Part shown: positions 1,944-2,447 of the stretch, piece after piece
How positions within the stretch are numbered: position 1 is the first letter of the stretch
Layout: every line of letters begins with the position of its first letter
DNA from: Escherichia phage 121Q
Length of the DNA stretch: 64,000 nt
Sequence record: NC_025447.1
Reading direction: 5' to 3' (one strand)
Notes under the pieces: model-generated
The model's input: only the letters and a program-made list of their open reading frames with translations
Told to the model about the DNA's origin: nothing
The model's database searches: none
Made by a program: the position numbers and the translations under genes

Positions 1944-2447
1944 ATGAAATCTATTATTGCCAATAACGAAATCACCGCAAAAACTGTACGTCTTGTTACG
2001 GAAGGTGCAAGTGAGGTCATGGCAATCTCTAAAGCACTTACTTTAGCAGAAAATCAAGGATTGGATTTGGTGGTTATTGGTGCAGGTGATGAACCTGCTG
2101 TCAAAATTACAGATCTTAACAAATACAAATATGAGTTGAAGCAAGCTGAAAAGGCTTCTCTTAAAAAACAACGACAAAATGCCGTGAGTATTAAAGAGAT
2201 TCAATTCAACTTTGGTACACAAGAGCACGATTTGCAGATTAAAGCAAAAAGTGCTGAAAAATTCCTTGATGAAGGAAAACATGTACATATTGTAATGAAA
2301 ACTTCAGGACGTGGAACTAATGCATCAGTAATTCAAGCAAATATTAATGCAATGGAATCATTCGTTAATCGTTTGGGTAACGTTTCATATGTTCAAAAAG
2401 TCGAGTTCCAAGGTAAAAAGGTAACCTGTACTGTCAAAGTAAAATAA
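1944..2447 (+). CDS. infC: translation initiation factor IF-3 homolog
   Basis: 167 aa; alignable over both IF3 domains with bacterial IF3 as recalled from memory: N-domain VRLV..G.....S.A...AE..GLDLV.I....EP.V.I.D..KYKYE and C-domain KEIQF..GT.EHD...K...A.KFL.EG......M.....GR; GGAG RBS upstream. Confidence 0.8.

Follow-up and report, generated by a model that had tools for sequence, protein, structure and literature searches.

An initiation factor IF3 homologue under purifying selection in the jumbo coliphage 121Q and related large phages

Introduction

Phages are usually thought to be wholly dependent on the initiation factors of their hosts, although an old idea holds that infection by T-even phages alters the specificity of initiation factor IF3. 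Among the Rak2-like jumbo phages, genes for a phage-borne IF3 have already been described. The 2017 paper on phage CBB (PMC5259590) identified CBB_318 as IF-3 with homologues in GAP32, 121Q, PBECO4 and Rak2, and found the Rak2-like jumbo myoviruses to be only distantly related to T4. Iyer et al. (2021; PMC7824862) included IF3 and a KTSC protein among the translation genes of jumbo phages, and the 2025 paper on phage Sharanji (PMC11895373) remarked that the function of IF3 in phages "cannot be definitively stated". The phage IF3 gene, annotated in databases and mentioned in papers from 2017, 2021 and 2025, is thus not new. A literature search for a functional study of any phage IF3 returned only mentions in genome descriptions, and the main text of the phAPEC6 virion-proteome paper makes no mention of IF3 or translation and thus offers no hint that IF3 is carried in the virion.

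Here we analyze the IF3 gene found in a stretch of 64,000 nucleotides from Escherichia phage 121Q (NC_025447.1), referred to below as the window. To the existing annotation we add estimates of dN/dS, the conservation of the promoter and GGAG motif, the wide synteny of the locus, and the retention and loss of individual residues. With its existence already known, the gene has low discovery value; the interest lies in its function and in a lineage-specific change in one of its loops.

Results

Distribution among phages

Over a 3-kb piece around the IF3 gene, the identity is 96.8% with SHEFM2K, slurp01, G17 and Sharanji, all Escherichia phages, and 96.7% with PBECO4. Sharanji, which infects E. 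coli K-12 MG1655, belongs to the genus Asteriusvirus and has a genome of 350 kb, and 121Q is likewise a Rak2-like jumbo coliphage of this genus (PBECO4/Sharanji-like). The preliminary description of the locus had viewed the gene against a T4-like background, a setting that holds only in the loose sense of distant kinship: the phage is a Rak2-like Asteriusvirus. An identical protein (100%) occurs in at least 10 GenBank records, and at least six of the records listed annotate it as IF-3 or infC. A tblastn search of 50,697 phage records detected an IF3 homologue in 93. The majority are jumbo phages whose hosts are Escherichia, Klebsiella, Salmonella, Erwinia, Yersinia, Serratia, Cronobacter, Pectobacterium and Xanthomonas, and the identity of the phage IF3 proteins across many jumbo phages ranges from 46% to 99%.

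Homology and domain structure

The coding sequence (1944–2447, + strand) runs from the ATG at 1944 to the TAA at 2445–2447 and encodes 167 amino acids. That the product is a full-length IF3 homologue, as first proposed from the sequence, is borne out by profile searches, all of which pass the curated cut-offs: Pfam IF3_N matches residues 7–71 (58.9 bits, cut-off 26.9), Pfam IF3_C matches residues 81–165 (51.8 bits, cut-off 34.8), and the NCBIfam equivalog TIGR00168 infC aligns protein residues 6–154 with model positions 7–154 of 170 (110.4 bits, cut-off 60). Both IF3 motifs quoted in support of the proposal are present in the ORF. The PHROG 9787 profile, 'translation initiation factor', covers residues 1–167 with profile positions 1–167 of 168 (6e-71). 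Among PDB sequences, phmmer matches the IF3 of E. coli (3e-17) and of T. thermophilus (4e-17); the score against E. coli IF3 is a modest 66 bits over query residues 7–145.

The AlphaFold2 model, for which 30 homologues were used, reaches a mean pLDDT of 85, and the predicted fold superposes on ribosome-bound IF3. Foldseek TM-scores against bacterial IF3 structures range from 0.66 to 0.79; matches to full-length IF3 over approximately 167 columns include 9a5a_B (0.79), 9ss1_F3 (0.74) and 5lmn_X (0.71), and the isolated IF3 domains 1tif, 1tig and 2ife are matched as well. The model consists of an alpha/beta N-domain (strands 14–19, 22–27, 41–46 and 52–56, helix 28–38), a long helix at 58–79 and a beta-alpha-beta-alpha-beta-beta C-domain. 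Taking the Pfam matches, the model, the alignments and Foldseek together, we assign the N-terminal domain to residues 1–57 (1944–2114), the Lys-rich helical linker, which includes Y63 (Y75 in E. coli), to residues 58–82 (2115–2189), and the C-terminal domain, by type the 30S-binding one, to residues 83–167 (2190–2444), all on the + strand. The ORF encodes a two-domain IF3, and the match is far beyond chance. An 81-residue antisense ORF (2043–2288) has no support and was rejected as a gene.

Gene neighborhood and selection

The Dda-like helicase ORF (53–1006; UvrD_C_2 and AAA_30 matches), originally described as adjacent to the IF3 gene, lies two genes upstream of it, with ORFs at approximately 1090–1656 and 1680–1874 in between. 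Downstream, a ClpS-like gene of 181 codons (2461–3006, + strand; Pfam ClpS 24.7 bits, cut-off 23; PHROG 15940) starts 13 nt past the IF3 stop codon, followed by a KTSC-domain gene, also encoding 181 amino acids (3078–3623, + strand; Pfam KTSC 51.9 bits). Terminator prediction on the + strand found none between 900 and 3800. The IF3, ClpS-like and KTSC genes are likely co-transcribed, judging from this arrangement, and the ClpS-like gene is a probable operon partner of IF3. The view of its product as a canonical N-degron adaptor is not supported: the best match to ClpS in the PDB has an E-value of only ~0.17, and other residues stand in the pocket in place of D36, M40 and H66.

The surrounding gene order is conserved in jumbo phages that infect Enterobacterales, Xanthomonas and Vibrio. 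A block comprising DHFR, RNase H, the Dda-like helicase, a structural protein, an ORF of 64–70 aa, IF3, the ClpS-like gene, KTSC and, further on, topoisomerase II is present in Sharanji, RaK2, GAP32, XaC1, CBB and the 349-kb Vibrio phage MG592671. The ClpS-like gene adjoins IF3 in the first five of these phages and in Ecwhy_1. The Vibrio phage carries a gene for ribosomal protein S21 between the IF3 and ClpS-like genes, which ties the gene block to the 30S initiation site; its KTSC homologue occupies the same place with 37.6% identity. A tblastn search of the 121Q window found no S21 homologue. In Atu_ph07 and Phosso, jumbo phages of rhizobia, the order is topoisomerase, ClpX-like ATPase, IF3.

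Compared with Sharanji, the IF3 gene of 121Q differs by one synonymous substitution. In the comparison with ph0011, synonymous differences number 41.5 and non-synonymous ones 8.5, for a dN/dS of 0.04, and that with Ecwhy_1 gives a dN/dS of 0.07; in more distant comparisons dS is saturated and dN/dS stays at or below 0.2. The phage IF3 is under strong purifying selection. Large phage genomes hold many acquired genes, and the IF3 gene could be pictured as one of them—a passenger recently captured from a host and having no role in infection. Divergence, synteny and dN/dS rule this reading out: the 66-bit match to E. coli IF3 is that of a distant homologue and not of a recent host copy, the protein has diversified over many jumbo phages while its synteny stayed fixed, and the dN/dS values of 0.04–0.07 speak against a gene of no use.

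Expression signals and start codons

The consensus promoter reported ahead of the gene matches the sigma-70 consensus TTGACA-N17-TATAAT at 12 of 12 positions (1871–1899, + strand), its −35 hexamer enclosing the stop codon (TGA) of the 64-aa ORF upstream. Perfect sites of this kind number seven in the window, every one of them on the + strand, where shuffled sequences would give 0.08; on sequence grounds, the seven represent a real promoter class. Transcription from the site at 1871–1899 would start near 1906 and produce a leader of ~38 nt; its activity and early timing are predictions. The hexamers are kept while the spacer has diverged in ph0011, Ecwhy_1, Turkey5 and CBB, and the orthologous upstream regions of GAP32 and RaK2 carry near-consensus versions. 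An Rfam scan of the whole window returned tRNAs only; near the IF3 gene it detected neither a leader RNA nor a regulatory RNA.

A Shine–Dalgarno core, GGAG, can be read at 1930–1933 (+ strand), 10 nt before the ATG. When the upstream regions of nine orthologues are aligned by eye, each has GGAG at the same position, ~10 nt ahead of the ATG, and an ATG start is found in 9/9 Rak2-like orthologues examined. More distant homologues begin with TTG (Vibrio phage MG592671) or GTG (Atu_ph07 and Phosso), which are "class I" start codons like ATG. The infC gene of E. coli, by comparison, has ATT as its start codon and thrS and rpmI as its neighbors, and its AUU start is the basis of IF3 autorepression. 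Neither of these host-type regulatory features, the AUU start or the thrS-infC-rpmI-rplT operon, is found at the phage gene. Having an ATG start and a GGAG ribosome binding site, the phage IF3 would therefore be expected to escape AUU-start autorepression.

The suggestion that a phage IF3 might bias initiation toward phage mRNAs had drawn on ORFs of the window that have TTG or GTG as their only plausible starts. Such ORFs exist but are few: a simple gene call gives about 121 ORFs, of which 105 are best started at ATG, and about 4–6 of roughly 115 require GTG or TTG (on the + strand, 24848–25153, 42770–42979, 45138–45353, 53168–53395 and 57267–58232). More than 90% begin with ATG, and most ORFs are preceded by a Shine–Dalgarno sequence. 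Non-ATG starts make up roughly 17% in E. coli, and IF3 treats AUG, GUG and UUG alike while discriminating against AUU, AUA, CUG and similar codons. As support for a role of IF3 the TTG/GTG starts are weak, because they are rarer here than in E. coli and because IF3 does not discriminate against GUG and UUG. A bias of initiation toward phage mRNAs is a plausible hypothesis.

Residues kept and lost

We aligned the phage IF3 with E. coli IF3, 28 members of its clade and 150 representatives of an exhaustive HMMER search (5,660 matches at E ≤ 0.001). Positions were considered class-conserved when the residue class is shared by at least 75% of the 129 other IF3s. In this unbiased scan, the phage clade retains 49 of the 55 class-conserved positions and differs at six: G31, K79, K123, R131, E134 and G141.

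The retained positions include those expected to matter for initiator tRNA and ribosome binding. In E. coli IF3, the invariant R25 and the conserved R66 contact the elbow of the initiator tRNA, and initiation at AUU and AUA increases when they are mutated (PMC9723500). They correspond to R16 and K54 of the phage protein, and the linker tyrosine Y75 corresponds to Y63; within the clade, Arg occurs at the R16 site in 30/32 members, Lys at the K54 site in 32/32 and Tyr at the Y63 site in 30/32. K72, K94 and G132 are also kept, and Lys is found conservatively at 112, 116, 129 and 168. In the C-domain, D96, K100, K102, K106, K119 and R123 stand for E. coli D106, K110, R112, R116, R129 and R133, so that equivalents of D106, K110, R/K112, R/K116 and R133 are all present; of these, D106, K110 and R112 are sites at which IF3 interacts with the ribosome (PMC3401457).

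The conservation of the helix-3 basic residues linked to subunit dissociation (R112 and R116, both replaced by Lys) fits one further role, which we consider improbable as the principal one: the phage IF3 could split idle 70S and hibernating ribosomes or keep their subunits apart, or license immature 30S subunits. IF3 is generally known as an anti-association factor and a competitor of RaiA/HPF-family hibernation factors. In addition, IF3 releases RbfA from 30S in stress (PMC7145577), and the related phage Sharanji encodes a protein of the S30EA/HPF family (PMC11895373). Were it true, such ribosome re-activation would serve phage translation in slow-growing or stationary hosts. The sequence, however, offers nothing to distinguish it, and it is compatible with a supplementary IF3 rather than exclusive of it; the kept tRNA contacts of the N-domain, moreover, suggest a role in real initiation complexes too.

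The phage IF3 has N89 in place of R99, S121 in place of R131 and G124 in place of E134, and H137 is lost as well. The absence of a basic residue at 131 and of an acidic one at 134 concerns a conserved functional site, not a trait that formally defines the family; it leaves the homology standing but qualifies functional equivalence. Position 131 is R or K in 90% of the 129 other IF3s, whereas in the phage clade it varies among small or hydrophobic residues (S, A, V, T, I or Q); at position 134, 81% of other IF3s carry an acidic residue and the clade mostly has G. Position 99 is N, T, S or A in the clade, but is basic in only ~55% of ordinary IF3s. At position 79 the usual Lys is replaced by Q67, an invariant Gln in the clade. 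R131 lies in an exposed loop and is a proposed mRNA contact implicated in start-codon discrimination (PMC3401457); in pre-initiation complexes of T. thermophilus, Arg123 forms a hydrogen bond with the +4 base of the mRNA, with Arg91 nearby (PMC5037330). Counting residues on the phmmer alignment with the PDB sequences gives a consistent +1 offset, which also fits Lys93, and by this count T. thermophilus Arg123 and Arg91 would correspond to E. coli R131 and R99, and to phage S121 and N89. A literature search on infC135, R131P and E134K, which are fidelity alleles of E. coli, yielded usable statements only from PMC3401457; these cover R131, R112, D106 and K110, and we therefore make no claim on the function of E134.

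A triple loss, defined as no basic residue at 99 and 131 and no acidic residue or Gln at 134, characterizes 30 of the 32 clade members as opposed to 11 of the 141 other top IF3 hits. In a neighbor-joining tree—a rough one, without bootstrap—42 of 44 triple-loss sequences fall in a single 51-member clade that includes the protein of the Vibrio jumbo phage. The IF3s of Atu_ph07, Phosso and the 595-kb huge phage LR756511 keep the canonical loop (K-G-R-E-x-x-H; R/K-G-R-E in its core), and the loop change is therefore specific to this lineage.

These losses raise the prospect of an IF3 of altered specificity. Such a protein would bind the IF3 site and the initiator tRNA but, with its start-site contacts lost, would have relaxed or re-tuned proofreading, and in competing with host IF3 it would re-program the acceptance of initiation regions. 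Of the 55 class-conserved positions, six differ, and R131 and E134 among these share one C-domain loop; the triple loss clusters in one lineage, from which the rhizobial and huge-phage proteins with their intact loop stand apart; and the missing arginines would be those placed at the mRNA. On the other hand, the variability of position 131 looks like lost constraint rather than a new contact, position 99 is non-basic in ~45% of ordinary IF3s, two of the three loop charges stay (K119 and R123), and unusual start codons are not evident in the window. We regard altered specificity as the main competitor of a supplementary IF3, though an unlikely one on balance.

The loss of R99, R131 and E134 could also point to an inhibitor that binds 30S unproductively and shuts off host translation, or to a decoy that diverts an IF3-inactivating factor of the host or of a phage. 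Initiation factors are among the proteins that phages modify, T7 kinase phosphorylating IF1–3, and the adjoining ClpS-like gene may be a hint of a scheme of replacement and degradation. But a 30S blocker would halt phage translation too, we know of no defence system that targets IF3, and strong purifying selection has kept both domains and the residues that contact the tRNA. This reading is very improbable.

Discussion

The best explanation of the locus, to which we give a probability of roughly 0.6, is a working IF3 that is made early and supplements host IF3 on host 30S subunits. Host RNA polymerase would transcribe the gene early from the sigma-70 promoter, probably with the ClpS-like and KTSC genes, and translation from an ATG with a GGAG ribosome binding site would leave the product free of the autorepression that acts on host infC through its AUU start. 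The phage IF3 would then bind host 30S at the IF3 site and raise the ratio of IF3 to 30S. A higher ratio would keep subunits dissociated and recycled, and would speed both the formation and the kinetic checking of 30S initiation complexes, the net effect favoring phage mRNAs led by ATG and a Shine–Dalgarno sequence as host gene expression declines. The 30S binding, activity, timing and effect on mRNA choice are all predictions from the sequence and its relatives. A raised ratio of IF3 to ribosomes reportedly shifts mRNA selection in cold shock, as Giuliodori et al. are said to have described in RNA in 2007.

Several points weigh against the supplementary role. A clade without R99, R131 and E134 may not act as a simple extra dose of IF3. 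When E. coli overproduces IF3, non-canonical starts and leaderless mRNAs are repressed, an effect that does not obviously separate phage from host AUG mRNAs. Finally, host IF3 protein is not, to our knowledge, one that becomes limiting in infection.

A bolder proposal, which we hold tentatively and consider rather unlikely, combines the residue changes with the gene neighborhood: the IF3 of the Rak2-like and Vibrio phage lineage may be a re-tuned factor within an early 'ribosome takeover' cassette (IF3, sometimes S21, the ClpS-like and KTSC proteins) that redirects ribosomes to phage messages. If so, the protein would bind 30S and initiator tRNA normally but change which start sites pass proofreading, a modern form of the T-even idea of altered IF3 specificity. 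An IF3 made by the phage would provide a direct handle on mRNA bias at the 30S subunit in large phages. The R99, R131 and E134 losses, together with the S21 gene that adjoins IF3 in the Vibrio phage, offer concrete mutants and comparisons for the question of whether the phage adds IF3 or changes proofreading.

Comparison with known systems

Bacterial IF3 (E. coli infC; structures 5LMN and 8JSG) likewise consists of two domains joined by a Lys-rich linker, and the E. coli and phage proteins share R25, K/R66, Y75, D106, K110, G132 and R133. The match is nevertheless a distant one: the phage protein lacks the basic N-terminal tail, has a linker two residues longer, and has lost R99, R131, E134 and H137. 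Its gene begins with ATG instead of AUU and stands outside an infC-rpmI-rplT operon. The phage IF3 coexists with the host copy, and its functional equivalence is only putative.

Ribosomal protein bS21 is reportedly encoded by both cultivated and uncultivated phages, according to work attributed to Mizuno et al. in 2019. Like IF3, it is a phage-borne component acting at the 30S platform and initiation site, but it is a ribosomal protein and not a factor. Mitochondrial IF3 (mtIF3/Aim23) represents another divergent IF3 lineage, and the phage model matches its structures 6rw4_8 and 6neq_z. It differs in having N- and C-terminal extensions and in retaining Lys at the position of R131 (PMC3401457), which the phage clade does not.

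Phages exceeding 450 kb, namely the rhizobial Atu_ph07 and Phosso and the metagenomic huge phages LR756511 and LR756501, also encode IF3. The rhizobial gene similarly lies beside a Clp-family gene and near topoisomerase genes, but it starts with GTG, unlike the ATG of the Rak2-like phages. The rhizobial and huge-phage proteins share 33–42% identity with the 121Q protein over the region aligned by tblastn, and fall outside the Rak2-like clade in the neighbor-joining tree. The closest counterparts are the annotated IF-3s of the Rak2-like phages themselves (PBECO4, slurp01, phAPEC6, Sharanji, RaK2 ORF153, GAP32_313 and CBB_318; PHROG 9787), which occur in the same gene order. Those from other genera share 54–90% identity with the 121Q protein, whereas from the PBECO4-type IF-3 there is no difference: the 121Q copy is the same gene in another isolate.

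Gene neighbourhood of IF3

Two genes constantly lie upstream of the phage IF3 gene, in the Vibrio jumbo phage MG592671 as well: one annotated as a virion structural protein (1090-1656, + strand; PHROG 16501) and a 64-aa ORF (1680-1874, + strand; PHROG 15132). The structural gene is listed as a TTG-initiated ORF at position 1066, but translation more likely begins at that ORF's ninth codon, an ATG.

On the other side, 13 nt past the IF3 stop codon, lies a gene for a ClpS-like protein of 181 aa (2461-3006, + strand), and the two genes adjoin in every case among the Rak2-like phages. 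The match of its product to the Pfam ClpS profile is marginal (24.7 against a cut-off of 23), and the protein carries an extension of approximately 70 aa at its N-terminus. In the alignment, the residues forming the N-degron pocket of E. coli ClpS (N34-D35-D36, M40 and H66) correspond to D-D-P, A and N; classical N-degrons may therefore not be ligands of the phage protein. A KTSC-domain gene (3078-3623, + strand; Pfam, 51.9 bits) comes third in the conserved block and is overlapped at its 3' end by the following ORF (3595-5184). Its product shares 37.6% identity with the counterpart in the equivalent position of the Vibrio phage.

Promoters, start codons and tRNA genes

The window contains seven perfect TTGACA-N17-TATAAT promoters (at 1871, 20055, 34131, 36538, 54310, 55672 and 60963), whereas 0.08 were expected; all are on the + strand and none on the other. 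This implies that the host sigma-70 RNA polymerase is heavily used throughout this short-ORF region. Clear non-ATG starts are confined to four of approximately 115 genes, all + strand ORFs without a usable ATG (45138-45353, 53168-53395, 57267-58232 and 24848-25153): the first three start with GTG, each with a strong Shine-Dalgarno motif (GAGGT or AGGAG) 6-8 nt upstream, and the fourth with TTG.

ARAGORN identifies a cluster of six tRNA genes (40682-45969, + strand): Gly-TCC, Ser-TGA, Ser-ACT, Met-CAT, Asn-GTT and Thr-TGT. All except Gly are supported by Rfam at the gathering score. The tRNA list of the related coliphage Sharanji includes a seventh, Arg (PMC11895373), for which neither ARAGORN nor Rfam gives a match in the 121Q window. 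The tRNA-Ser(ACU) gene (43464-43555, + strand) has the anticodon loop CTACTAA, hence the anticodon ACT, with an A34 that is unusual in the split AGN codon box. A tRNA adenosine deaminase is reported to be encoded by Sharanji; inosine at position 34 of this tRNA would carry the risk of AGA (Arg) being read.

Comparison with other jumbo phages

The block of Vibrio phage MG592671 (349 kb) is otherwise syntenic with the 121Q window, but has an inserted gene for ribosomal protein S21 (81 aa; PF01165) between IF3 and ClpS, at 4533-4778 of the Vibrio phage sequence; tblastn finds no S21 homologue in the 121Q window. In the rhizobial jumbo phages Atu_ph07 and Phosso, by contrast, IF3 is adjoined by a ClpX-like ATPase gene in place of the ClpS-like gene.
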